A stretch of 64,000 nucleotides of DNA, taken from the IMG/VR virus record IMGVR_UViG_3300028734_000011, one strand, 5' to 3'. How positions within the stretch are numbered: position 1 is the stretch's first letter; each line of letters starts with the position of its first letter. Source of the stretch: a virus. Positions 2,905-37,209 of the stretch are shown here, one piece after another. The notes beneath the pieces were generated by a model that had not been told where the DNA came from, did no database searches, and was given only the letters and a program-made list of their open reading frames with translations. The position numbers and the translations under genes are program-made.

Positions 2905-3194
2905 AATTTGATAATAAAAAACAATGGACATCAGAAGAGAAAGCTATTCATAAAAATAATGGACAACCATTATACAAAGGAATTGCGTCAGAACATGTTG
3001 GTAAGATAGTTAAAAGATATAATGAATATGGTGTTATACTTTGTAGTGATATTTTCAATTTTAACGGAGAACCTGTCATAAAATATGATAATAAAAAAGA
3101 ATATGATGCTGAACAATTACTTGGATTACCATTTGAAGAAGTAAAAAATTATACTCTTAAATATATAAATATTGATGGTACATTAAAAAAATAA
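2901..3194 (+). CDS. hypothetical protein
   Basis: 97-aa ORF; ATGA overlap with upstream ORF. Confidence 0.4.
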   Translation: MKFDNKKQWTSEEKAIHKNNGQPLYKGIASEHVGKIVKRYNEYGVILCSDIFNFNGEPVIKYDNKKEYDAEQLLGLPFEEVKNYTLKYINIDGTLKK

Positions 3195-4797: not shown

Positions 4798-5318
4798 ATG
4801 TTAAATTTATCTGAGTTTTTTTTAGTTAAATATATTTCATATTGATTAGGATATTTCTTTAATATAAATTTTTTAATTTCTTCATTTTTATTTAAATAAT
4901 AAATAAAATCACGAATTATATTATTACCATAATTTTGTTTAATGTTCCAATCTGAACCTGCTTTTATTAATTTTTGAATTATTGATACGAAATAATTAAT
5001 GCTTGAACCAGTAAGTCCCATAGATGATAATATCAAAGCTGTTGTTCCATTTTCATCTTGAATATCTAAATTTGCTCCTGATTTTATTAATTCATCAAAC
5101 ACATTTTCATATCTATTTATAATAGCGAAATGCAATGCAGGTTTTCCATTTAATTGATTTGGTAAATCTAAATCTATTTGTCCAGATTTTATCATATTAA
5201 TCATTTCATTTTGGCCTTTCTGATTTAAATCTTTTTGTCTTATAAGATTTAATAAATCATAAGTATGATATTGATTTTCATTAATTTTTAATTCTTCGTA
5301 TAATTTGATATGTTTCAT
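4794..5318 (-). CDS. cassette-family protein, ankyrin-repeat subtype
   Basis: N-term MKHIKLYEEL, C-term SDKFNI; ANK repeats (GKPALHFAII..LIKSGANLDIQDENGTTALILSS). Confidence 0.7.
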   Translation of the reverse strand: MKHIKLYEELKINENQYHTYDLLNLIRQKDLNQKGQNEMINMIKSGQIDLDLPNQLNGKPALHFAIINRYENVFDELIKSGANLDIQDENGTTALILSSMGLTGSSINYFVSIIQKLIKAGSDWNIKQNYGNNIIRDFIYYLNKNEEIKKFILKKYPNQYEIYLTKKNSDKFNI

Positions 5319-5413
5319 ATATTTATATATTAATAAATTAATATTAATTTATTTTAATCAAGTTAAAAAAATACCTTATAGATTTTATATATAGTTGAAA
5401 TTAATTTTTTAGT

Positions 5414-5728
5414 ATGGAAATAAAAAAATTCAATGAAAATTCAAATAATATAGGAATATATGCAATAGTTACTATACCAGAAGATAAACGTCAAATAAAT
5501 TTAATTGAATTGATTGCGGATGACTATTATTTAAACAATGAATTACATTCATCAAGTGTAAATGAAAAAGAATCATTAATAAATTATACTATTGAGCATT
5601 ATCTTTATGATAAAGGATTATTCAAATATACATATAAATTAGTTGATGAATCTGGAGCTGAAGTAAAAATTGAAGATTTGGAAAAAAGGATAGAACTTAA
5701 TAATAATACAAATAAATTTAATATATGA
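5414..5728 (+). CDS. cassette-family protein (variant N-terminus)
   Basis: N-term MEIKKFNENS, C-term TNKFNI; ATGA overlap with next member. Confidence 0.5.
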   Translation: MEIKKFNENSNNIGIYAIVTIPEDKRQINLIELIADDYYLNNELHSSSVNEKESLINYTIEHYLYDKGLFKYTYKLVDESGAEVKIEDLEKRIELNNNTNKFNI

Positions 5729-6213: not shown

Positions 6214-6704
6214 AATATATAAAAAAATTTGAAATGAATAATAATACTGATACAGATTTTTATTTAGAAGTTACATCAGAAGTCGCATTTAGTTATTGTA
6301 ATGGTAATCCGTTACCATCTACTGATCCAATTCCATTAAATACTCAAGTATTAGAATATGCATTTGGAATACCTAGTGATGGCGCAACAGACAGAGATTA
6401 TGAAGAGGTAGCTGAAGATGCTTGTGAATGGTTTGATGGAACAATAGAATCAATAAAAAATAGTGTTAATGCAGTCAATGAATTTGATTATGCAAGTGAA
6501 GGTCCAGATTTTGTATTAGGAGTTAATTATGATGGTGAATCAGCAGAATTTGGTAATCTTCATGTATTTTTAAAAGATTGTAAACAAGTAAAAGTTGTTT
6601 TTGTTTATGATTGTAAAAAGGAAAAATTTTATAAACCAAATTTTTTTAAAAAACTTTATAGTACGCCTGGATTATATAATAATATAGATAAATTTAACTT
6701 ATGA
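6210..6704 (+). CDS. cassette-family protein
   Basis: N-term MKYIKKFEMN, C-term IDKFNL; ATGA overlaps both sides. Confidence 0.6.
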   Translation: MKYIKKFEMNNNTDTDFYLEVTSEVAFSYCNGNPLPSTDPIPLNTQVLEYAFGIPSDGATDRDYEEVAEDACEWFDGTIESIKNSVNAVNEFDYASEGPDFVLGVNYDGESAEFGNLHVFLKDCKQVKVVFVYDCKKEKFYKPNFFKKLYSTPGLYNNIDKFNL

Positions 6705-10952: not shown

Positions 10953-11714
10953 ATGGAATTAATTGGATTTGCAAATAAATTTTACACTCTTTGGAGTTAT
11001 TCAGAAGAACCTTTGTATAGCACAGTTAATAATCAATCATATCAATATGGTATCAGACAGATATATAATTACATTAAGAATATATCTTTTGATTTAGATA
11101 AAGTTAAAGAACTTTATCCTGATGTTGTAATTGATGATGAATTAAAAGGTAAAAGTGCAAGTTGGACAACAGAGCCAAAATTTGAATACCCTGCTGAATG
11201 TTTTCATTTTGGTAAATACCAGGGACAACTTATCAGTGAGTGTAAAGACCAATCTTATCTGATTTGGTACTATGAAAATGGTTTGTATGATGAACGTCTT
11301 ACTATAACAAAAAATAGATTAGTTGAATTAGGATGTGGTTTTTATGATGATATGATATTTTCATCTATAGAATTACTTAATCAGTATACTGAAAGAATAA
11401 CTAAACAAGCGGAACTTTCAAAGATTATTTGTGAAACTTATGATAAATATAAAACACCTGGTATTTTTTCATATGATTTTAATCATTCTTTAAACAGTGA
11501 AGGAAATTATGCAGATGCTTCATTTGATTTTCATTTCAATGAATATTCTGAACAATATTATTCTGGATATAATTTTGGATTACCTTTAATGAATGGTAAG
11601 GCTAAAAGAATTAAAAACAAAGTTCTTGAAATGGAGGTTGTTACAGTAGAAAATGATGAACTTGACTATAAATATTTTAAAGTATTAAGCCTTAAATCAG
11701 TAAAAAATATATAA
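10953..11714 (+). CDS. hypothetical protein
   Basis: 253-aa ORF, no recognisable motif. Confidence 0.45.
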   Translation: MELIGFANKFYTLWSYSEEPLYSTVNNQSYQYGIRQIYNYIKNISFDLDKVKELYPDVVIDDELKGKSASWTTEPKFEYPAECFHFGKYQGQLISECKDQSYLIWYYENGLYDERLTITKNRLVELGCGFYDDMIFSSIELLNQYTERITKQAELSKIICETYDKYKTPGIFSYDFNHSLNSEGNYADASFDFHFNEYSEQYYSGYNFGLPLMNGKAKRIKNKVLEMEVVTVENDELDYKYFKVLSLKSVKNI

Positions 11715-12459: not shown

Positions 12460-13260
12460 ATGAATAAAGAAGAATTAATACAAGTGTTTGAAGACACAAA
12501 ATTACACAGTGAATGTATGTTGAAATCAGAAACTACTATACATTCATTTGATGATAGATTAATGCCAGATATTAGCATTCCTTGTCATGAAAACATACAA
12601 GTTATAAATTCTGATAGTGTATCTGCAGTTACAGAATATAGTAAATTAGGAAAAACTTGTGTTCTTAATATGGCATCATTTAAACGTCCAGGTGGAGGAG
12701 TTGCAAAAGGGTCCAAAGCACAGGAAGAATGCTTATTTAGATGCTCAAATTTGATTCATTTAATTAATACTGATAATTATCCATTGAATGATGATAACGC
12801 ATTATACACTAAAGATGCCACATTTTTCAAGGATGTATATTATAATTATATGAATGACGTTCAATCTGATGTTGTAACTATTGCAGCATTAAATCTTAGA
12901 AATGTTGATATTAATAGTCATTCTGATACAATAACAAGTGAAAATATATCATCAATAAATTCTGATGGAATAACAATATCAAATTGGGATTATGAACAAC
13001 TTACTAAGGAAAAAATAAGATTGATGTTATCACTTGCAATTAAAAATGATGTTGATATTATAATTTTAGGCTCATTCGGATGTGGAGTTTTCAAAAATGA
13101 TCCTGAAAAAATGGCTAAAATATTCAAGAAATTATTAGTAAATGAAGGATATTCTAAATATTTTGAAAAAGTAATATTTGCGATTATCAATGACAATAAC
13201 TCAGTAGGTAATAATTATGAAATTTTCAAAAATGTTTTTAGTGATTATAATTTAATTTAA
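12460..13260 (+). CDS. bacterial-type poly(ADP-ribose) glycohydrolase-like macrodomain protein (DUF2263-like)
   Basis: FKRPGGGVAKGSKAQEE matches the PARG signature GGG-x6-8-QEE; a second Gly-rich loop LGSFGCGVFKNDP is typical of the macro fold. Confidence 0.6.
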   Translation: MNKEELIQVFEDTKLHSECMLKSETTIHSFDDRLMPDISIPCHENIQVINSDSVSAVTEYSKLGKTCVLNMASFKRPGGGVAKGSKAQEECLFRCSNLIHLINTDNYPLNDDNALYTKDATFFKDVYYNYMNDVQSDVVTIAALNLRNVDINSHSDTITSENISSINSDGITISNWDYEQLTKEKIRLMLSLAIKNDVDIIILGSFGCGVFKNDPEKMAKIFKKLLVNEGYSKYFEKVIFAIINDNNSVGNNYEIFKNVFSDYNLI

Positions 13261-13269
13261 TTTAATATT

Positions 13270-14022
13270 ATGAAAAATGCATTAAGTTTATTGCAGTCAA
13301 AAGCATTAGTAGACACTATTAACATGTTATATGATGATGGTGATTTAGCTATAATTTTACCAGAATTATATAACTTATACACAACTAATGATGGTCATAA
13401 AAATAATTATTACCACACATTAGGAGTACTTAATAATGTAATTAAATATGACAATGATAACTTAAAAATGAAAATTGTTGCATTATTACATGATATTGGA
13501 AAGATTTCTGTTAGATCTAAAAATGATGATGGAAATTGGACATTTCATGATCATGAAAATGTAGGAGCAAAAATGGTTAAAAAAATCTTGAAAAGATTTA
13601 ATATAACCAATAAGAAAACTATTGATTATGTTTACAGAATGGTTAAATATCATGGTAGAGTAAAAATGCACAGAGATGTAACAGAATCAGCTATAAGAAG
13701 GCTTGACGTGGAAGTTGGACCTGATATAGTATTAGAGTTGATTGAGTTCTGTAAGTGTGACATAACCACTAAATATGAAGATAAAAGACAACGTATTGTT
13801 TCAGGATTAGATGAAATAAAAAAAAGAATATTAGAAGTTCGTAACAAAGACAATGAATCTAAATGGCGTTCTCCAATAACAGGAATTATAATAATGAAAA
13901 TGTTAGGAATAACTACTGGTAGAATGGTTGGAGATATAAAGAAAGTAACTGATGAAAAAATAAAATCAGGTGAATGGACTGAAGATGATGCTATTAAATA
14001 CATTGAAACATTTAAGATATAA
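13270..14022 (+). CDS. HD-domain phosphohydrolase
   Basis: YYHTLGV...ALLHDIGK...HDHENVGAKMV: the H...HD...D metal-binding pattern of HD-superfamily enzymes (cf. HD domains of CCA enzymes and 2',3'-cyclic phosphodiesterases). Confidence 0.6.
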   Translation: MKNALSLLQSKALVDTINMLYDDGDLAIILPELYNLYTTNDGHKNNYYHTLGVLNNVIKYDNDNLKMKIVALLHDIGKISVRSKNDDGNWTFHDHENVGAKMVKKILKRFNITNKKTIDYVYRMVKYHGRVKMHRDVTESAIRRLDVEVGPDIVLELIEFCKCDITTKYEDKRQRIVSGLDEIKKRILEVRNKDNESKWRSPITGIIIMKMLGITTGRMVGDIKKVTDEKIKSGEWTEDDAIKYIETFKI

Positions 14023-21275: not shown

Positions 21276-21587
21276 ATGAAAATTCAAAAATTCGATGAGC
21301 ATCATTTTACTACATTTAATGGAGAAATGTTATTAGCAGGTAAATCTAAATATCCAGTAGGCACTAAAATCAAATTTAAAGATGAAGGTGAATACTTAAC
21401 TGGCACTTTGACACATCCATTTGGTTATTGTAATGGTGATGTTGGAGTGTATTTAGATCAAAAAGGAAAGTATGTGGATGATAGATTGTGCTTAAAAAAT
21501 AGAGAATATATAGTAATTGATGATGATGTTGAAGAATATATGAAAGATAATACATTTAAAACAGATATAAAAAAATTCAATTTATAA
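21276..21587 (+). CDS. cassette-family protein (divergent N-terminus), last of array 2
   Basis: N-term MKIQKFDEHH, C-term IKKFNL. Confidence 0.5.
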   Translation: MKIQKFDEHHFTTFNGEMLLAGKSKYPVGTKIKFKDEGEYLTGTLTHPFGYCNGDVGVYLDQKGKYVDDRLCLKNREYIVIDDDVEEYMKDNTFKTDIKKFNL

Positions 21588-21633
21588 GTGAAATAGCTTA
21601 TAATGCGTATTTATAAGTGAAATAGCTTATAAC

Positions 21634-21678
21634 AAAAAAATCCTATCTGATTTTTCAATTAGATAGGATTTTTTTTAT
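21634..21678. terminator. bidirectional intrinsic terminator
   Basis: AAAAAAATCCTATCT-gatttttcaatt-AGATAGGATTTTTTTT; preceded by a 20-nt direct repeat ATAAGTGAAATAGCTTATAA x2 (21587-21640). Confidence 0.6.
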
Positions 21679-21689
21679 ATTGCTTGAGA

Positions 21690-22650
21690 ATACAGCATTA
21701 TAGAGAAGAACTTTAGAAACTATTATTTTTTCTGCTTCTTTTCCACCAATCTTTTGAATTGGTACTCCTCCAATGACGGTCAATTAGATTCACCACTCCT
21801 TTTGTTGTTAGATACTCTCTTAATAATCATTACTCATCTAGAATGCCTTCCAGATTAAATCTTGCGGATTTAGAGAACTTTCTTAAAAATCATGTTAGAC
21901 TTGGGGTCTTTCACGGCTATAACGAATTTCTTCTCATAACTAGTAGTCACCTATCTCCAACAACAGTCGAACTCTTTTCCTTTATTTGTTTATTTTAATT
22001 TTGCATTAAATTTGCAGTTAAAGTTTGTTTTGTGGATGATGAAAGTAGTGGTTCGACAACCAGATTCTCCATCTTTTGAACGGAGCTATACTAAACTACT
22101 CTCTGAGATATCCCTACCTCCATATTTTAAGTTAACTAAGACACTCTCATATCCTTTGGTAAAGATAGGGTAACCTTAATAACAGCACCACCTGTACATT
22201 GGATTACAATCTTATTTACCTTTCGGTTTTAAGCCAACTTTTATATTGGATAACGCAATTACACAACTGGAAATCGTGTTTCTTGCAATAATCCTTCAGG
22301 TTATTCTTATTGATGTTCCCATCTCACTTAGACTACCCACATAGCCCTTGCATTAAACCACTTTCTCTATAGTGTTACCCTCGATAATTAAGGTTTAATG
22401 ATATCCTGATTGTCTGCTCGAACACTAAATGAATATTACTAACAAATTTTTATAACTAATAACTATTATTCACATAATTGAATGTTTTATATAAACTCAC
22501 CGAAGTAAGTTTATTTACGAACAATTATATGTCAAACTATTAGCCTAATAATCTGTTAAATAATAAATCATTTGATGTCGCAAATATATAGAAACAACTA
22601 CATATTCACTTTATCCTACTTTCGTAGTTTATTTAATGACTACAGACAGC
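21690..22650 (-). rRNA. degenerate small-subunit rRNA-like segment (3' half), possibly a pseudogene or captured fragment
   Basis: ORF-free and GC-elevated. The minus strand shows SSU-like motifs in the correct colinear order:
- CAGATTATTAGGCTAATAGT (cf. CAGGATTAGATACCCTGGTAGT)
- TAATTATCGAGGG (cf. AATTGACGGGGG)
- AGTGGTTTAATGCAAG (cf. TGTGGTTTAATTCGATGCAACG)
- AAGAATAACCTGA (cf. GAAGAACCTTACC)
- ACAGGTGGTGCTG (cf. ACAGGTGGTGCATGG)
- TTAGTTAACTT (cf. TTGGGTTAAGT)
- GGAGGTAGGGATAT (cf. GGAGGAAGGTGGGGAT)
- TCTGGTTGTCGAACC (cf. TCTGCAACTCGACTCC)
- GGTGAAT...ACCGTCATTGGAGGAG (cf. GGTGAATACG...CCCGTCACACCATGGGAG)
The universally conserved ACACCGCCCGTC core is truncated and there is no anti-SD tail. 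Confidence 0.4.
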
Positions 22651-23084
22651 CAAATATTTTCAATTTTACAAAGAACGCTTTTAAATAAAAAACAAACATT
22701 TAGATTATAGTAAATTTTTATACTATCATTTCTTAACTAAAAGAATTTAGATCTAATAAAAGGAACTAACCTCTTAAACTTGTAAATTAACCATTTTCAT
22801 AGTTATATTTACTAATAAATCTAAATGTATTGTTTCTTGTTGTTTTTCAAGTACTTTTACTTGAAAATGACACAAATCTATTTCAGTCCTTTTGTTCTTC
22901 ACAGAACTTTTTTCAGTGGAACAATAAACATTATTATGTTCATTATATTTACTTTTGTAATATCAATCCTTGAATCTTTATTACTTCTGCAATATTTACT
23001 TCTGCAATATTAATCATACACTTTTGCAAGCTTCAAGTTGGCTTTTGCCTTTGATTATTTTTATTGCTTTTTCAATTATTAATG

Positions 23085-23153
23085 TCTAAGTGTGTTTATT
23101 TGCACTATCTCCTTTTGCAAGCTTCAAGGTGGTTTCTGTACCATTAGATTTTT
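23085..23153. repeat. repeat module A, copy 1
   Basis: TCTAAGTGTGTTTATTTGCACTATCTCCTTTTGCAAGCTTCAAGGTGGTTTCTGTACCATTAGATTTT; five near-full copies plus a partial copy at 23021-23049. Confidence 0.7.
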
Positions 23154-23264
23154 AGTTGGTTATACAACATTTACTGTCATGATATTAATAATTACTCATA
23201 CCATCAATAAAGTTGGTTATCATAGATTATTTTTCACTTTTTCAATTATTAATATCTAAGTATG

Positions 23265-23330
23265 ATCAATTACACTTAATCCTTTTGCAAGCTTCAAGGT
23301 GGTTTTTATCTAATTAGATATTAAATTGTA
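23265..23330. repeat. repeat module A, copy 2 (divergent 5' part)
   Basis: ...CCTTTTGCAAGCTTCAAGGTGGTTTTTATCTAATTAGATA. Confidence 0.6.
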
Positions 23331-23349
23331 TAAGCAAGATAATTAATAT

Positions 23350-23417
23350 ATAAGTTGTGTTCATTTGCACTATCATCCTCTTGCAAGCTTCAAGGTGGTT
23401 TTTGTACCATTATATTT
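23350..23417. repeat. repeat module A, copy 3
   Basis: GTGTTCATTTGCACTATCATCCTCTTGCAAGCTTCAAGGTGGTTTTTGTACCATTATATTTT. Confidence 0.7.
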
Positions 23418-23424
23418 TCATTGC

Positions 23425-23545
23425 TTCAATCTGAAATTTGATTTGTTTCATTATTGTAGTTCAAAATTACAAAAAGTTTTTTGTTTTACCAAATATTTAA
23501 TGTTAAAGTTTTGAACTTTTTTTATCAAGTACTCTTACTTGAATG
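23425..23545. repeat. repeat module B, copy 1 (with flanking sub-modules)
   Basis: CAATCTGAAATTTGATTTGTTT + ATTGTAGTTCAAAATTACAAAAAGTTTTTTGTTTTACCAAATATTTAATGTTAAAGTTTTGAACT (9-bp inverted ends AGTTCAAAA/TTTTGAACT) + CAAGTACTCTTACTTGA hairpin. Confidence 0.7.
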
Positions 23546-23662
23546 AGTATTAAAAAATAAAATCATTTATAAGTTCTTTTATCTTCTCAGATTAGAAAAA
23601 ATAAACTTTAAATCATATTTATTCTTGTAACTTTACAAATCTGCGAAATGTATTATTATAAA

Positions 23663-23730
23663 TCTAAGAGTGTTCATTTGCACTATCTCCTTTTGCAAGC
23701 TTCAAGGTGGTTTTTATACCATTAGATTAT
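23663..23730. repeat. repeat module A, copy 4
   Basis: TCTAAGAGTGTTCATTTGCACTATCTCCTTTTGCAAGCTTCAAGGTGGTTTTTATACCATTAGATTAT. Confidence 0.7.
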
Positions 23731-23760
23731 CCATTAAATATGAATTGTGATTTTCTTTTT

Positions 23761-23847
23761 TATTATAGTGTGAAATTACAAAAAGTTTTTTGTTTTACCA
23801 AATATTTAATGTTAAAGTTTCAAACTATTTTCAAGTACTCCTACTTG
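23761..23847. repeat. repeat module B, copy 2
   Basis: TATAGTGTGAAATTACAAAAAGTTTTTTGTTTTACCAAATATTTAATGTTAAAGTTTCAAACT...CAAGTACTCCTACTTGA. Confidence 0.65.
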
Positions 23848-24497
23848 ATTTTTTATTCAAGGAATTTTAATTAAACAATTTTTTTAAATATCATATTAAA
23901 ATTAACTACTCTTTTTCAAGAGATTTAAATTAATTTTTTTACAATTATCAAATTTTATAAGATAATCAAAACTCTCTTGTTTTGGTTATGAATATCAATA
24001 GTGGAACTTACTTAAAACCGAAGTTTGTTTTTCAGTGTTGAAATCAATATTCATAGTGAAGATAGATGGAGTTGAACCCAGTGTCAGTAACACTTGCCTT
24101 CTGCACAATTTGAATCGTGCTGCACCCTGTGTGCTTATCTTCATCATTTTTTATAATTTAATCAATAGTCAGTTCTTGTAGTGAAAGTAATAGCAGTCAG
24201 TCACATATCATCTAACATTAGGATTTATAATATTCCAAATTTAATTCAAATATTGTATTTCCACGGTGTAGTTACTATTTACATTTATAACAAGATAAGT
24301 TCTACATAACTTATATATCTACTTCAACGGATATTTATCTTTGATAGTTTTTTTATTGTATAAGATTACAATCTTATCATTAATTCACCATTCACACTTT
24401 CAGATTCATCTTTTTTAATACATCTTCTTATAAATATATTATTAGATAAGTTACTAATGCTGATATTTCTTGTTTAAATCTGATTTTTTGATTTAAA

Positions 24498-24585
24498 TTA
24501 TTGTAGTTCAAAATTACAAAAAGTTTTCTGTTTTGCCAAATATTTTTGTTATTTTTTATACATTTTCTCAAGTACTTTTACAAGA
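24498..24585. repeat. repeat module B, copy 3 (divergent 3' half)
   Basis: ATTGTAGTTCAAAATTACAAAAAGTTTTCTGTTTTGCCAAATATTTTTG...CAAGTACTTTTACAAGAG. Confidence 0.6.
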
Positions 24586-24743
24586 GATTTTTTTAAAATC
24601 AAATCATTTTCAGTTCTTTTATCTTCACAGATTAGAAACAATAAATTTTCATTTATTATATTTACTTTTTAAATTCTGTATTTTATTTTTCACTATAAAA
24701 AATTACTTAAAAATAGTGAGTTTTTTATTACAAAATTTAATTA

Positions 24744-24813
24744 ATCTAAGTGTGTTCATTTGCACTATCATCCTCTTGCAAGCTTTAAGGTGGTTTCTAT
24801 ACCATTAGATTTT
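24744..24813. repeat. repeat module A, copy 5
   Basis: TCTAAGTGTGTTCATTTGCACTATCATCCTCTTGCAAGCTTTAAGGTGGTTTCTATACCATTAGATTTT. Confidence 0.7.
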
Positions 24814-24816
24814 TTT

Positions 24817-24915
24817 CAATCTGAAATTTGATTTGTTTTTATTGTAGTTCAAAATTACAAAAAGTTTTTTGTTTTACCAAATATTTAATGTTAAAGTTTT
24901 GAACTTTTTTTATCA
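24817..24915. repeat. repeat module B, copy 4
   Basis: CAATCTGAAATTTGATTTGTTT + ATTGTAGTTCAAAATTACAAAAAGTTTTTTGTTTTACCAAATATTTAATGTTAAAGTTTTGAACT. Confidence 0.7.
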
Positions 24916-24952
24916 TTTTAAATTATGATTTTTTACAATCACTTTTCATTTG

Positions 24953-25105
24953 ATATTGTAGTGCAAAATTACAAAAAGTTTTTTGTTTTACCAAATATTT
25001 AATGTTAAAGTTTTGAACTTTATTTTCAAGTACTCTTACTTGATGTTTTTGTTTTGTTTGTAGTACAAAAGTATAAAAAGTTTTTGAAACTACCAAACAT
25101 TTATA
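24953..25105. repeat. repeat module B, copy 5 plus a degenerate sixth copy
   Basis: ATTGTAGTGCAAAATTACAAAAAGTTTTTTGTTTTACCAAATATTTAATGTTAAAGTTTTGAACT...CAAGTACTCTTACTTGA, then degenerate TGTAGTACAAAAGTATAAAAAGTTTTTGAAACTACCAAACATTT. Confidence 0.6.
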
Positions 25106-25124
25106 GATAAATTTTAAAATATTT

Positions 25125-25577
25125 TCAAATTTGAATATTTCTATTCCAAGGACGACCTATATTTCTATCACTTTTTGTTTTATGTTTTATAATTTTTTCA
25201 GATTCATCTAAATCTTCAAACCCATTATAATATTTACATAAATCATTCAATGAATAGAACACTAGTATATTATTAGTAATAGCAAATTCTACTTCATTGT
25301 CTGCTCCACTTGAATCTCCTGGTAATCTTAAAATGCAATCACACACTGGAATCCATTCAAAGTCCAATTTTAACCAATCTTCATATGGTCTTGGATGAGC
25401 CATATGCTGAAAATGTGAATATAATGGAGTAAATGGTACAAATCCTTTATTCATCAATTCATCTGCAGTATCCATTTGTGTTTTTACATTAACTGCAACA
25501 TCACCTTTTGTATATGGTGAAGCTATATAAACTTTAATCATATTTTTATTTCTTTTTTTTAATATATATGGTATCAT
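25125..25577 (-). CDS. nucleoside 2-deoxyribosyltransferase-like protein (tentative)
   Basis: 150 aa; KVYIASPYTKGD...FTPL...DW(L)..D...I..CD.ILRLPGDSSGADNEVEFA fits the Rossmann-like NDT/Rcl/DUF4406 pattern. Confidence 0.45.
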   Translation of the reverse strand: MIPYILKKRNKNMIKVYIASPYTKGDVAVNVKTQMDTADELMNKGFVPFTPLYSHFQHMAHPRPYEDWLKLDFEWIPVCDCILRLPGDSSGADNEVEFAITNNILVFYSLNDLCKYYNGFEDLDESEKIIKHKTKSDRNIGRPWNRNIQI

Positions 25578-28419: not shown

Positions 28420-30063
28420 ATGTTAAGATATGATGATTATAATAAATTAAATGAGGCTTTCTTTCATCGAAGTAAAGATGAGTTAGAAAACCTCATACAT
28501 TCTTTTAAAAGTTTGATTATAAATTTAAAACAATCAATAGACAAAAAATATACTTTAGATTTCTATAAAAATCAAATCAAAGAAGATTTAGAATCATATA
28601 AGAAAAGTCTATTGAACAATTATAATAAAACAACAATTATTAAATTTAAGGATTTATTCAAAGATTTTTTAAATAATGTTGATAACGATATAATTAGGCA
28701 CATGAGATTAAATAAATTTGCGAATGATATATTAAAAATATATTCAATTAACAATTCATTTGATATTAATATAAAGAATGTAGATAGTGTTTTTAAAGCA
28801 TATGCTGATAACGTAGATCGATATATAGACAGTACATATGAATTTTTTTATGACAAAATAGAGACTGACAAATCATATGAGCCTTATAATAAGATAGATA
28901 TAAAAATAAATAAAGTTCCTCTTGATGAATATCAAAAAACTAAATATAAATATCAAATAGAGTTATTAAAATTACAGGAATGGATTACATACAATAACAA
29001 AAAGGTATTAATAATATTTGAAGGTAGAGATGCTGCAGGAAAAGGATCTGCAATTAGAAATATTACTAGGTTTCTTGATCCAAAACATTATAGAGTACAA
29101 ACATTTGGTATTCCGTCAGAAGAAGAAAGTGATAATTGGTTTGAAAGATATGAAAAAGTTTTACCAAAAAATGGTGAAATTGTTTTCTTTGATAGATCTT
29201 GGTATACAAGAGGTTACGTTGAACCAGTGATGAAATATTCAACAGATGATAAATACAATAAATTCATGAAAGAAGTTAATAACTTTGAGGATAAATTAAT
29301 TGATGATGATATTATACTTATAAAAATATGGTTCTCTATATCTCAGGATGTTCAAAAAATGAGATTTGAATTAAGAAAATCCAATCCATTGAAATATTGG
29401 AAATTTAGTAAGAATGATGAGCAAACGTTAGATAAGTGGGATGAGTTCACTAAATACATAAATGACATTTTCAAAAAAACAAATACAAAAGAATCACCTT
29501 GGATAATAATAGATGCTGACGATGAGAATTATTCAAGATTAGAATCATTTAACAGTATAATAAAAACTATTGAAAAAGATAAAGATAATACTAAAGAAGG
29601 CGGAATAAAAGTTGTATTTGAAGATATTGATGGACCTCTTATTCCTTATGATAAAACATCTGATACTGATTATCATAAATTTTTTAATGATCCAGAAAAA
29701 TGGAGTAAAACTGCAATGAGCAATTTAAACAAAATAATAGAAAAAACAGATGCAAAAGTTGTATTATCATCTTCATATAGAGATGATAAACCTTTAAGTG
29801 AGATTGAAAAAATGATGAAAGATGCAGGGTTTAAATATAAAATTTATGATGTTGTTCCAAATGACAAATCAAAAAAACGTGGTTCTGATATAAAAGATTG
29901 GTTGAAGAACAACAAATTTGTTAGCAATTTTATAATTATTGACGATAATAAGCATGACTTATATGATGTGTTCAGTAAAAAACATATTGTTAAAACTACT
30001 CATGAATTAGGTATAACAGATAGTATTGTTGATGAAGCTATTGAAAAATTAAATACCAAGTAA
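28420..30063 (+). CDS. polyphosphate kinase 2 (PPK2) domain fused to C-terminal HAD-like phosphatase domain
   Basis: PPK2 Walker A IIFEGRDAAGKGSAI and Walker B/lid VFFDRSWYTRG; C-terminal ~150 aa carry VVFEDIDGPL (DxDG, HAD motif I), VLSSS (motif II), K...GSD and IIIDDN (motifs III/IV). Confidence 0.6.
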   Translation: MLRYDDYNKLNEAFFHRSKDELENLIHSFKSLIINLKQSIDKKYTLDFYKNQIKEDLESYKKSLLNNYNKTTIIKFKDLFKDFLNNVDNDIIRHMRLNKFANDILKIYSINNSFDINIKNVDSVFKAYADNVDRYIDSTYEFFYDKIETDKSYEPYNKIDIKINKVPLDEYQKTKYKYQIELLKLQEWITYNNKKVLIIFEGRDAAGKGSAIRNITRFLDPKHYRVQTFGIPSEEESDNWFERYEKVLPKNGEIVFFDRSWYTRGYVEPVMKYSTDDKYNKFMKEVNNFEDKLIDDDIILIKIWFSISQDVQKMRFELRKSNPLKYWKFSKNDEQTLDKWDEFTKYINDIFKKTNTKESPWIIIDADDENYSRLESFNSIIKTIEKDKDNTKEGGIKVVFEDIDGPLIPYDKTSDTDYHKFFNDPEKWSKTAMSNLNKIIEKTDAKVVLSSSYRDDKPLSEIEKMMKDAGFKYKIYDVVPNDKSKKRGSDIKDWLKNNKFVSNFIIIDDNKHDLYDVFSKKHIVKTTHELGITDSIVDEAIEKLNTK

Positions 30064-34769: not shown

Positions 34770-35492
34770 TTATTTTTGAAATGAAGGTTTCAGCCACATC
34801 TTAGTATGATTAAATACATAATCTCTCAAAGTAGGAAATTCATTTAATACTAATATTGTTTTCAATGTATCAAATTTGAAACACTTAGTAAGTTCATCTT
34901 GAATTCTTTCACTTGAAACTACTTTCATTTTTGATTCATAATCATAATTTTTGATAGCAATTTCAATTTCATCAGTCATTCTGAATCCTTTTGTAATACA
35001 AAATCTCACACATCTTAAGATTCTTAGGGAATCCTCATCAAATGTAAGCTCACAAGGTCTTGGTGTTCTAAGAATTCCCATTTTAAGGTCTTTAACTCCA
35101 TCAAACAAATCAATCAATGTACCATTTTCATCAAGTGCCATCGCATTTAATGTGAAATCACGTCTGATTAAATCATCTTCAAGAGTACCAAGTTCTAAAA
35201 TTGGACGTCTTGTACCTTCATAATAACCAATTTCCTTTCTTGCCATTACAAAGTCTGCAGTCAAACCGTCATGTTTATGACCCTTTGGAAATTTTGCTTT
35301 AATTGTAAAACATCTTGGCGTTGAATTATAAATAGTATAACCATTTTTACGTAGCCATAACTCCATATCCATGAATCCAGATTCAACAGATTGATTCTTA
35401 TCATCCAATACAAAAGTAAAGTCAATGTCCTTACAATCAACTCCTAAGATACGGTCTCTGACCGCTCCACCTACTTCATAAATTTTTGGCAT
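34770..35492 (-). CDS. tRNA nucleotidyltransferase (CCA-adding) / poly(A) polymerase family head domain protein
   Basis: Class II nucleotidyltransferase motifs: YEVGGAVRDRILG, DIDF (metal-binding DxD), RRDFTLNAMA; 240 aa, head/neck only. Confidence 0.7.
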   Translation of the reverse strand: MPKIYEVGGAVRDRILGVDCKDIDFTFVLDDKNQSVESGFMDMELWLRKNGYTIYNSTPRCFTIKAKFPKGHKHDGLTADFVMARKEIGYYEGTRRPILELGTLEDDLIRRDFTLNAMALDENGTLIDLFDGVKDLKMGILRTPRPCELTFDEDSLRILRCVRFCITKGFRMTDEIEIAIKNYDYESKMKVVSSERIQDELTKCFKFDTLKTILVLNEFPTLRDYVFNHTKMWLKPSFQK

Positions 35493-35659
35493 AATTTTAT
35501 TTTTATTTAATATATTTAAATTCTAGTTTATCTGAAAATTCATTAATATCCTGAGCCAATGCTATAAGTAAGAATCCTACTAATATAACGCAAGTAAAAA
35601 TTCCAATAAATCCTAATAACAAAGAAAATAATCTTAATAATACTATTATAAATCTCATT

Positions 35660-35902
35660 TCAATTTTTTTTATTTTTTAATAAATTATAAGAAATTATTA
35701 TTATTGTAATTAGAACAAAAAAAGTAAAAAATGTTCCTAATCCAAAAACCACATAATTCTCAATACACTTATAAGTTGAATAATAATGTATATTATATAA
35801 ATCATGAGTAATTTTAATTCCACCAATCATACATGAAAACATATATCCATACATGATAAATAATAAAAAATTAAAAAATAATTTAAAAATTTTTTCTTTC
35901 AT
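35660..35902 (-). CDS. small membrane protein
   Basis: 80 aa with two hydrophobic helices. Confidence 0.35.
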   Translation of the reverse strand: MKEKIFKLFFNFLLFIMYGYMFSCMIGGIKITHDLYNIHYYSTYKCIENYVVFGLGTFFTFFVLITIIIISYNLLKNKKN

Positions 35903-35910
35903 AATATGAA

Positions 35911-36177
35911 TTATTTAAAAATATATCCTTCTGGAAACTTTTTTCTACATTCTGAACCAACTCCCATAACCCATGCATCAGGATATGATTCTTTATCATC
36001 AGCTTTATACATTGCGCCGCCGTATATTGAATTAATGAAATATTTTGGTGTTTTTAATGCTTTACCACAACATGGACAATGCTCCATATTCATATAATCT
36101 GCTCTATCTCTATTAGAATCAAACATATCATAATTATCAATTGTAGGAATATTAATAATATCGTTAGGCTCTTTCAT
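35911..36177 (-). CDS. hypothetical Cys-containing protein
   Basis: 88 aa; MEHCPCCGKALK...GSECRKK; the antisense + ORF 35906..36097 is rejected. Confidence 0.4.
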   Translation of the reverse strand: MKEPNDIINIPTIDNYDMFDSNRDRADYMNMEHCPCCGKALKTPKYFINSIYGGAMYKADDKESYPDAWVMGVGSECRKKFPEGYIFK

Positions 36178-36213
36178 ATTGCTGTTTATTTTTTAATTAC
36201 AATACAAAGGTAT

Positions 36214-36250
36214 ATAAAAAGCCTTGAATATAAAATATTCAAGGCTTAAT
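36214..36250. terminator. bidirectional intrinsic terminator
   Basis: AAAAAGCCTTGAATAtaaaATATTCAAGGCTT. Confidence 0.65.
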
Positions 36251-36270
36251 TTAATATATTTTAATAAAAA

Positions 36271-37209
36271 TTAGAAAAAATTAGAGGCATCAACATATTT
36301 AAAGCCACATCGTTTAGCGAATGTTTTATCACTTGTCAAATCTCCAACCATTATACATTGTGATGGATCAAGTTTATATTTCTCAATGAATTCAACTCCA
36401 AAGCCAACTCCTGGCTTTCTACAATAGCAAGTGATTGGAGGAACAGAGTGCCCGCAATATTTATAATCAATATTAACTCCTAACATTTCATTTGTCTTTT
36501 CAAAACATTCTATTGCAGTCTCATGAGTTAATAATCCTTTTGCTATACCACTTTGATTTGAAACACCAAGTAATATATAACCTTGACTCTGTAATTCTAA
36601 AAGTTTTTCTGTTCTACCAGGAATTATTTCAATATCACTAATATCTGTTGGATAATGTCCTCCACTTTTCGTTAATCTCAAAGTGCCGTCATAATCAAAG
36701 AAGATTGCTTTATTTTTATACTCTGATGGATATCTTTTGAAATCTATTTTTTCTATATCATCAATACCTTCTGATAATTCTGGTGTTTCAAAATGTTTAT
36801 TCATTTTATAAAGTGCAGCTACAGGAAACATATGTGGATCATTAACTTTAGAATAATCACTTAATTCTGTAAATAATCTATCATATTTTCTTATCATTCT
36901 TGTTACCTGATTGAACATACAATCTTCAATCTTTGTGGTGAAATAAAGGCAAATTATATAGTAGTCATATTTTTTTGCTAATTCAATAACTTCAGAACGA
37001 GATAACTTAGTTGTATATGTACCATCTAATACAATATCAACACCATCTATCATCAGTGCTTCAAGTTTCTTATTAAGTGAAATTAATGTACCACCTTCAA
37101 TATCTCTTGATAATAAGGTGTAATTATAATCAACATAAGATTCAACAATACCTGATTTACCTGCAGCAGGTAATCCACAAGTCATAACTAATCTTTTTTC
37201 TTCTTTCAT
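36271..37209 (-). CDS. pnk: polynucleotide 5'-kinase / 3'-phosphatase (T4 Pnk-like)
   Basis: N-terminal P-loop kinase VMTCGLPAAGKSG; C-terminal HAD phosphatase with IFFDYDGTL (DxDGT), LGVSNQSG, CRKPGVG, MVGDLTSD. Domain order kinase-then-phosphatase as in T4 Pnk. Confidence 0.8.
   Translation of the reverse strand: MKEEKRLVMTCGLPAAGKSGIVESYVDYNYTLLSRDIEGGTLISLNKKLEALMIDGVDIVLDGTYTTKLSRSEVIELAKKYDYYIICLYFTTKIEDCMFNQVTRMIRKYDRLFTELSDYSKVNDPHMFPVAALYKMNKHFETPELSEGIDDIEKIDFKRYPSEYKNKAIFFDYDGTLRLTKSGGHYPTDISDIEIIPGRTEKLLELQSQGYILLGVSNQSGIAKGLLTHETAIECFEKTNEMLGVNIDYKYCGHSVPPITCYCRKPGVGFGVEFIEKYKLDPSQCIMVGDLTSDKTFAKRCGFKYVDASNFF

Follow-up and report, generated by a model that had tools for sequence, protein, structure and literature searches.

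A repeat island beside GOLLD RNA in a Bacteroidota jumbo phage: a probable minus-strand cluster of promoters and cloverleaf RNAs

A mosaic of repeats lies beside a GOLLD RNA gene in IMG/VR record IMGVR_UViG_3300028734_000011, a stretch of 64,000 nucleotides (nt), called the window below, from a large (jumbo) phage of a Bacteroidota host. GOLLD RNAs are often found close to tRNA islands (PMC12286853; PMC6582537). We propose that the repeat island (22840–25126) and GOLLD (21681–22693) together form one minus-strand gene cluster for non-coding RNA (ncRNA), composed of predicted promoters and predicted structured RNAs and equivalent to such a tRNA island. We put the probability of this reading at roughly 0.7; the figure covers the gene cluster, and any specific function is much less certain. 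The comparisons that follow support the predicted strand, the identity of the promoters, the RNA structures and the lack of coding potential, as well as the conservation of the island and its equivalence in position to tRNA islands.

Predicted cloverleaf RNAs, promoters and hairpins of the island

The island is AT-rich, with about 23% G+C as in the rest of the window, and its repeats are restricted to it within the 64 kb. A preliminary description of the letters alone had recognized here a non-coding mosaic of interspersed modules (A, B and C), and every family it named was found. It had described the units on the opposite strand; they read on the minus strand.

Module A is predicted to be a cloverleaf, an RNA of about 68 nt with a four-way junction, encoded on the minus strand. 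Its core, TTGCAAGCTTYAAGGTGG, occurs six times in the island, always in one orientation and with at most one mismatch (at 23024, 23115, 23285, 23381, 23693 and 24776), and nowhere else in the 64 kb at that stringency (expected number 0.01). The five copies and one partial copy counted from the letters were borne out by a covariance model, R1, which recovered five full copies (80.7–100.2 bits) and one partial copy (28 bits):

23007–23059, minus strand: partial module A copy A6, hairpin 2 kept with ACUU/AAGU (R1, 28 bits)
23079–23152, minus strand: module A copy A5 (R1, 98.1 bits)
23249–23322, minus strand: module A copy A4, the most divergent (R1, 80.7 bits)
23343–23418, minus strand: module A copy A3, closing stem UAUAA/UUAUA (R1, 93.3 bits)
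23657–23730, minus strand: module A copy A2 (R1, 100.2 bits)
24739–24813, minus strand: module A copy A1 (R1, 94.1 bits)

The minus-strand sequence is 5'-AAUCUAA-UGGU(AUAGAAA)ACCA-CCUU(GAAGCUUGCAA)AAGG-AGAUA-GUG(CAAAUGAA)CAC-AC-UUAGAUU-3', which RNAalifold, unguided, folds into three hairpins inside a 7-bp closing stem. In 15 distinct copies drawn from three genomes, pairing holds in 92% of cells, and at six pairs both sides have changed. None of 500 shuffles was as good, and slid partners were 30–52% paired. In a model-based alignment of 21 distinct copies, the substitutions are exemplified by closing-stem pair 6:99, which is CG in 11 copies, UA in five, AU in three and GC in one, and by hairpin-2 pair 25:66 (CG 15, AU 4, UA 1). 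Moreover, hairpins 2 and 3 contain U:G wobbles that on the plus strand would turn into C·A mismatches. The loop of hairpin 2, GAAGCUUGCAA, is 11 nt long, does not vary among the 15 full copies aligned (those of the window and two relatives) and holds two overlapping 6-nt palindromes, AAGCUU and UUGCAA; one further copy in a relative has GCGA for GCAA.

In outline module A resembles a tRNA, with a 7-bp acceptor-like closing stem and three hairpins. It has no 5-bp/7-nt anticodon arm with U33 and purine 37, hairpin 2 having a 4-bp stem and an 11-nt loop, and it has neither a T-loop GTTCRA nor a D-loop GG, the loops of hairpins 3 and 1 being CAAAUGAA and AUAGAAA. ARAGORN at default settings found nothing in module A, nor did Rfam return a tRNA match at E≤10. 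Genuine tRNA genes were rejected as an account of the island, since ARAGORN at default settings called none in it or in any related locus and lowered thresholds gave noise plus the tRNA mimic described below. Neither module A, nor the GNRA-hairpin box, nor the long unit behind promoter P3 matched a family in Rfam 15.

Module B is predicted to be a promoter of the Bacteroidota sigma-A type, directed along the minus strand. The five to six copies with 9-nt inverted termini noted earlier resolve into five near-exact copies and one degenerate copy, and all six are oriented toward GOLLD. On the minus strand the module reads ...AATATTTGGTAAAACAAAAAACTTTTTGTAATTTTGAACTACAAT, that is TTG, 20 nt and then TAATTTTG, a −33/−7 architecture; in flavobacteria the sigma-A box is TAnnTTTG, at −12 to −5 (PMC9723704). 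A scan for TTG-N17-21-TAnnTTTG gave five exact matches on the minus strand of the island, with spacers of N19–21, and zero on its plus strand. Transcription is predicted to start near 25061, 24959, 24845, 24504, 23766 and 23457. A sigma-70-type promoter scan found no enrichment (27 against 28.7 expected), as is to be expected because that consensus is the wrong one for a Bacteroidota host. The six predicted promoters are:

23456–23522, minus strand: promoter P1, core TTGGTAAAACAAAAAACTTTTTGTAATTTTG at 23492–23462, predicted start near 23457
23765–23831, minus strand: promoter P2, −7 box mutated to TAATTTCA with a matching change in the upstream arm (repeat family and motif scan)
24503–24560, minus strand: promoter P3, core 24539–24509 (motif scan)
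24844–24910, minus strand: promoter P4, core 24880–24850 (motif scan)
24958–25024, minus strand: promoter P5, core 24994–24964 (motif scan)
25060–25126, minus strand: promoter P6, the degenerate module B copy, core TTGGTAGTTTCAAAAACTTTTTATACTTTTG at 25096–25066 (repeat family and motif scan)

The inverted arms of P2 are altered in step (AGTTTGAAA / TTTCACACT vs AGTTCAAAA / TTTTGAACT), such that pairing is kept and the TTTG of the −7 box is lost. This coordinated change suggests either that the arms have a pairing-dependent role or that the mutation was templated by the quasi-palindrome. Motifs of the same flavour (TTGGT...TGTAnnTTTG) stand 19–41 nt upstream of open reading frame (ORF) starts elsewhere in the window, at 10953(+), 59848(−), 41759(−), 15949(−) and 10350(−). 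In the related contig L001 the module B promoter core recurs directly ahead of a protein gene, and L281, an unrelated phage of 22% G+C, has two B-like promoters directly upstream of GOLLD.

Two further arrangements of B-type promoters were seen. Each of the two in L281 (10245–10440, minus strand) is followed by a hairpin and U-run (GUUAGCAGAAGUGCUAAC-UUUUUU), a pair that could be an attenuator ahead of GOLLD. In L003 (980–1600) about seven tandem B-type promoters, 90–115 nt apart, precede the first cloverleaf; the sequence between them is non-conserved, and their counterpart in the window is the three promoters P6, P5 and P4.

Module C is predicted to comprise a covarying GNRA-tetraloop hairpin and an 18-nt palindromic hairpin, here called hairpin C. 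Three copies of the combined module had been proposed, a number that holds for the box (...TCTAATCTG[AT]GAAGATAAAAGAACT, two exact copies and one divergent) and fails for hairpin C, TCAAGTA-N4-TACTTGA, of which there are five (four exact and one variant). The CAATCTGAAATTTGATTTG sub-repeats listed with them are also present, in two copies. Loops of the box are GUGA, GAGA and GAAA on stems AUCU/AGAU, AGCU/AGCU and (G)UUCU/AGAA(C). The stems differ in a compensatory manner between copies and genomes, and the loops fit GNRA on the minus strand only.

22884–22908, minus strand: GNRA-hairpin box, divergent, GUUCU-GUGA-AGAAC then AAAAGGACUGAAA
23572–23596, minus strand: GNRA-hairpin box, AUCU-GAGA-AGAU
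24612–24636, minus strand: GNRA-hairpin box, AUCU-GUGA-AGAU
22847–22864, minus strand: hairpin C copy 1, TCAAGTA-N4-TACTTGA, the last before GOLLD
23525–23542, minus strand: hairpin C copy 2
23831–23848, minus strand: hairpin C copy 3
24566–24585, minus strand: hairpin C variant, CTCTTGTA-AAAG-TACTTGAG, kept as a variant in all lineages
25026–25043, minus strand: hairpin C copy 5

The stem sequence of hairpin C is conserved without covariation and its loop is free to vary. Copies always stand a few nt upstream of a module B, and the last stands about 155 nt ahead of the GOLLD block. Outside the island the 64-kb window holds only a weak look-alike with two mismatches, at 5491. Hairpin C may act as a partial terminator, a processing or stability element or a DNA operator.

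Layout of the proposed cluster and its GOLLD neighbour

The segment adjoining the island had been described as rRNA-like, and the island itself tentatively as a scrambled, amplified rRNA remnant. Neither description stands. No rRNA match was found at E≤10, and the adjoining segment is GOLLD RNA, the sole significant Rfam 15 match in 21500–25300; the remaining matches at E≤10 (E≥1.4, 16–20 bits) lie outside the modules. The conserved block shared with relatives ends at about 22693, and 22281–22405 within the 5' domain matches the GOLLD locus of LR745206, a 635-kb phage, at 74%.

21681–22103, minus strand: GOLLD RNA, conserved 3' domain (Rfam RF02032, 274.8 bits against a gathering threshold of 150, full model 1–416)
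22104–22693, minus strand: GOLLD 5' (variable) domain (nhmmer alignment of 21681–22700 to L002–L007 and L001)
21634–21675, bidirectional: intrinsic terminator with a 19-bp stem, A-run and T-run, directly after GOLLD (inverted repeat I2)

This terminator is the only canonical one that a scan of 21500–25300 returned. Between the end of the gene at 21276–21587 and the terminator lie two copies (21581–21603 and 21610–21632) of a 23-nt imperfectly palindromic element, TTTATAAGTGAAATAGCTTATAA, a pair also present in L002 (about 3050–3110).

Read along the minus strand, the first half of the cluster runs P6, hairpin C, P5 and P4, followed by A1, a GNRA box and the hairpin C variant, and then by P3 and a unit of about 630 nt. 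The rest consists of hairpin C and P2, then A2 with a GNRA box and hairpin C, then P1 with copies A3 to A6 (the last partial), a GNRA box and hairpin C, and finally GOLLD and its terminator. Because the stretch from the last hairpin C to GOLLD has no promoter motif, GOLLD is probably co-transcribed with the A3–A6 run from P1. One of the earlier candidates, arrayed small-RNA genes with their own hairpin terminators, thus survives in part: the arrayed small RNAs agree with the predicted layout, and what the units have of their own is promoters (module B), not terminators.

The unit downstream of P3 is unique and conserved. Its fold z-score is −2.15 on the minus strand against −1.20 on the plus strand, and its ORF is broken in the L002-type relatives. 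It contains a tRNA mimic, with the acceptor GAAGAUA/UAUCUUC and the D-like arm GCAC-ACAGG-GUGC, so that acceptor, T-arm and D-loop all resemble those of a tRNA. In L002 the acceptor has a G:U pair, which fits the minus strand only, and the T-arm is a clean AAGG-UUCAAUU-CCUU. The anticodon arm is non-canonical, a 7-bp stem with a 4-nt (or 8-nt) loop that differs per lineage. ARAGORN reported the mimic at a lowered threshold only, and its best Rfam match was tRNA-Sec (13 bits, E=3.6).

23870–24504, minus strand: unique conserved non-coding unit of about 630 nt, downstream of P3 (three-lineage alignment)
24056–24142, minus strand: tRNA mimic inside this unit, with a 7-bp acceptor-like stem, a D-like arm with GG and T-loop GGGUUCAACUCC

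No conserved ORF was found in the island. The longest frames, 42–91 amino acids, all have in-frame stops in relatives, a ground on which a protein-coding or mini-ORF reading was rejected, and ORF statistics were no better with either TAG or TGA reassigned. Module A contains a look-alike of a ribosome-binding site and start codon, AAGGAG-N9-AUG; in many copies AUA, UUA or CUA stands in place of the AUG, and the peptides that would follow vary in length and sequence between copies. Likewise, the spacings of module A (91, 170, 96, 312 and 1083 nt) are irregular and no CRISPR direct repeat was matched, in agreement with the preliminary view that this is not a CRISPR array. An assembly artefact, the other worry voiced at that stage, is ruled out because the same array is present in nine independent IMG/VR contigs of 38–330 kb, from nine different metagenomes as judged by their identifiers, and in one further metagenome contig.

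If the layout is read as a gene cluster, host RNA polymerase would start at each module B promoter, and read-through would yield a nested set of polycistronic precursors that all end at the terminator behind GOLLD. From these, tRNA-processing or other RNases would then excise the cloverleaves and the tRNA mimic; the nucleotidyltransferase and RNA-repair genes of the phage may be a circumstantial pointer to such processing. Stacked promoters and gene copies would together give a high dosage of RNA.

The phage affiliation is consistent with the window's gene content. Related contigs reach 181–330 kb, and among deposited phages it is Prevotella Lak megaphages and Tenacibaculum jumbo phages that have the closest homologues of one window protein. 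Window genes encode ankyrin proteins and, near the island at 12460–14022, 28420–30063 and 34770–37209, a toolkit for RNA end repair and maturation: a microbial PARG, an HD protein, a PPK2 joined to a "Swiss Army Knife" RNA-repair HAD domain, the head domain of a poly(A)-polymerase/CCA-type nucleotidyltransferase (34770–35492) and a Pnkp-like kinase-phosphatase. At default detector settings there is no standard tRNA in the 64 kb. Three tRNA-like genes lie at 60413–61030 on the minus strand, with canonical T-arms GGTTCGA[TG]TCC and irregular anticodon regions. One (60931–61030) scores 36.8 bits against Rfam tRNA and is called by ARAGORN as tRNA-Leu(CAG) with a 23-nt intron; those near 60520–60590 and 60413–60498 were found at a lowered threshold only.

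Relatives and other GOLLD loci

The layout is kept in three lineages, namely the window itself, L001/L008 and L002–L007/L009/L010/L030. In those relatives whose retrieved stretch includes both, the array lies directly upstream of GOLLD and on the same strand. Nucleotide identity to the relatives is 82–84% for the island, 77–88% for the flanking genes and 88–99% for the module blocks. Comparison of copy number, which the preliminary description had advised, gave a variable module A count across the three lineages (5+1, 7+1 and 5+1). In the L001/L008 lineage about 130 nt of the GOLLD 3' end are also present a second time (L001 2066–2192, equal to L250 12397–12523), downstream of the complete gene at a distance of about 210 nt; no such copy was seen in the window.

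A search with a motif conserved in the GOLLD 5' domain brought up 17 further phage loci with the same GOLLD subtype. In 10 of the 17, a tRNA-Met(CAT) lies near the GOLLD motif and shares its strand; three of the 10 also have arrays of 9–23 upstream tRNAs. The GOLLD of LR745206 (L270) is preceded by four copies of a 54-nt Bacteroidota-type promoter module, interleaved with a tRNA, a tRNA-like gene and tRNA-Met. A 103-nt tRNA-like element also flanks GOLLD in L270, as two copies of 98% identity (5279–5381 and 6474–6576) with the acceptor GGTCGGT/ACCGACT, a canonical T-arm and a long extra arm; it falls below the Rfam tRNA gathering threshold.

Module A itself was confined to the three lineages in the material covered, which was the IMG/VR pattern scans and the fetched loci. 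Model R1 found no copies in 18 loci that have the flanking DUF7768 gene nor in the 17 same-subtype GOLLD loci, and in LR745206 nothing convincing, the best being a single 23-bit match far from GOLLD. A two-copy loop pattern was run against metagenome and genome collections; among the matches listed nearly all were due to chance and only L030 was real. A second IMG/VR pattern, built on hairpin 3, gave no new lineage. Synteny through the flanking gene offers weak support for equivalence to a tRNA island: in L252, the nearest outgroup, that place is taken by ordinary genes, and a few more distant loci have tRNA islands nearby.

Alternative explanations and possible function

Several points weigh against reading the island and GOLLD as one gene cluster. 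Strand, promoters and processing are computational throughout. Folding energies of single module A copies are no better than those of shuffles (z of +0.3 to −1.4). The covariation counts are not independent, because they come from three close lineages of about 80% nucleotide identity and from paralogues, and gene conversion among copies could inflate them; the compensatory changes at 10 of 18 pairs among 21 distinct copies come from the model-based alignment, fitted to the model and hence biased toward the structure. The scan of 21500–25300 found no terminators between island units, and hairpin C makes a poor intrinsic terminator: its stem has only two G·C pairs, it is not consistently followed by a U tract on either strand, and that scan did not report it. 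The −7 box of P2 is damaged, and the short intervals after P5 and P6 have no conserved product. Because the cloverleaf lacks any tRNA sequence hallmark, its recognition by RNase P, RNase Z or the CCA-adding enzyme is speculative. Finally, within the window the GAAGCUUGCAA loop has only chance-level antisense matches (7–9-mers, including one 7-mer in GOLLD), so that adjacency is what suggests a functional link to GOLLD.

Could the island instead act as DNA? An origin or iteron field (perhaps transcription-activated, cf. T4 ori(uvsY)/ori(34)), a packaging site or a recombination site, with modules as protein-binding repeats and palindromes as binding sites, would suit 2.3 kb of AT-rich non-coding sequence with direct repeats and perfect palindromes. 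It would also suit a hairpin C conserved without covariation, the AAGCTT/TTGCAA palindromes, the inverted arms of module B and many promoters without a conserved product. Yet four module A helices and the GNRA hairpins carry compensatory substitutions, and the GNRA loops fit one strand only, which argues for selection on RNA rather than for protein half-sites. The repeats are irregularly spaced, without the regular phasing of iterons. Cumulative GC skew, a check proposed in the preliminary description, tracks gene orientation and makes no turn at 22–25 kb, where an origin would call for a switch in strand composition. A scan of 10 flanking proteins returned no initiator, terminase or recombinase, the neighbours being ankyrin, LRR and DUF7768 proteins and unknowns, and relatives have tRNA genes at the homologous position. 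We consider a DNA-level element quite improbable. The early suggestion of an origin is not upheld, and on recombination or packaging sites nothing spoke either way beyond these same points.

A decaying remnant would be a degenerate tRNA or small-RNA island made of pseudogenes and orphan promoters, with no function beyond that of a GOLLD promoter. It would explain the partial or degenerate copies (A6 and the module A copy of L001 that scores 60.7 bits), a tRNA mimic that fails tRNA detectors, the damaged P2 box, lineage-dependent copy number and a leader before module A that resembles a degraded module A 3' half. Set against these are module blocks more alike between lineages than the genes (88–99% versus 77–88%), an 11-nt loop that stays invariant in 15 copies while the stems compensate, and a consensus core in five of six promoters, which make decay distinctly unlikely. 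Transcription from the plus strand, with module A as small RNAs ending in T-runs and module B as a structured RNA or terminator, fares worse. T-runs do follow two of six module A copies (TTTTTTT after 24813 and TTTTT after 23152), a hairpin at 24694–24720 is followed by TTTTTT, and the cloverleaf can be drawn on both strands. The T-runs are, however, inconsistent among copies, the plus strand of the island has zero promoter motifs, GNRA loops and U:G wobbles suit the minus strand only, and the predicted promoters share their strand with GOLLD and with the tRNAs that relatives have in the corresponding place. Plus-strand transcription is thus highly improbable. We give almost no credence to a repeat-RNA antitoxin of type III toxin–antitoxin character, or to another defence or counter-defence repeat RNA, whose repeats a cognate protein would process and be neutralized by. 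Three to four structured tandem repeats do stand behind a promoter (A3–A6), and a multi-copy dosage suggests titration of a partner; yet what follows the repeats is GOLLD and no toxin-like ORF. Type III-like antitoxin repeats are 34–40 nt long and run head-to-tail, unlike units of about 68 nt placed 90–170 nt apart.

As a gene cluster, the island finds its closest counterpart in the tRNA islands that flank GOLLD, as these are described by Weinberg et al. 2009 (via PMC6582537) and in PMC12286853. The likeness lies in position and strand relative to GOLLD, in arrays of cloverleaf-sized genes of about 70 nt, in individual or shared host-type promoters and in a single terminator after GOLLD. The differences are that module A lacks U33 with a 7-nt anticodon loop, a T-loop and a D-loop GG, and that its copies are near-identical paralogues, not different isoacceptors.

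Other small RNAs share single features with the cluster. Phage T4 encodes species 1 and 2 (rnaC/rnaD), stable non-tRNA small RNAs of no known function, within its tRNA cluster and co-transcribes them with it, much as the island sits in a tRNA-island-like setting. Compared by description only, the T4 RNAs differ in being single-copy, about 120–140 nt long and without GOLLD, and are not known to form a repeat array. Sibling small RNAs such as LhrC1-5 and Qrr1-5 are simple stem-loops with their own Rho-independent terminators that act by antisense pairing, their function being carried by an invariant loop. Module A resembles them in its clustered near-identical genes, each or most with a promoter of its own, and its invariant loop, and differs in its predicted four-way junction, the lack of an own terminator and the absence of an antisense target among those searched. 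Among tRNA-like ncRNAs are the tRNA-like domains of bacterial YrlA/Y RNAs and viral tRNA-like structures. The element at 24056–24142 likewise mimics the acceptor, T-arm and D-arm of a tRNA without a decoding anticodon loop; it differs in that it has no Ro/Rsr gene, no Y-RNA stem and no Rfam match to those families, and in being embedded in an RNA of about 630 nt.

What the cloverleaf does within the proposed gene cluster is a more tentative matter. It may be a non-decoding, tRNA-shaped RNA that stands in place of tRNAs beside GOLLD. Phage tRNAs, at times encoded inside the GOLLD linker, are among the proposed cargoes of the 14-mer GOLLD cage (PMC12286853; PMC6582537), and palindromic (kissing) loops together with GNRA contacts are predictors of assembly competence in RNA, as in the manA motif (bioRxiv 10.64898/2026.07.01.735769). 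Module A recalls such manA-type self-assembling RNAs as a small structured phage RNA with palindromic loops AAGCUU/UUGCAA and neighbouring GNRA hairpins; it is not homologous to manA, and its own assembly is pure conjecture. The cloverleaf that replaces tRNAs might be a physical partner or cargo of the GOLLD nanocage, docking or oligomerizing through AAGCUU/UUGCAA and the GNRA hairpins. This is the weakest step of the scheme, and we hold the proposal to be unlikely as it stands. A high-dosage decoy for a protein that recognizes the GAAGCUUGCAA loop is an equally open role.

GOLLD is among the largest ncRNAs of bacteria and phages and forms a 14-mer nanocage, and the consistent genomic clue to it is the proximity of tRNAs. 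That decoding tRNAs here appear to be swapped for a tRNA-shaped RNA and a tRNA mimic suggests that the neighbours of GOLLD may matter for their shape or dosage and not for decoding. Module A would be a new candidate RNA family for Rfam-style curation, and module B a clean set of near-identical phage promoters predicted to be strong and of the Bacteroidota type. Module A and its companions are short, synthesizable candidates for work with their cognate GOLLD; were the cloverleaf indeed its partner, it would be the first defined RNA ligand for GOLLD.

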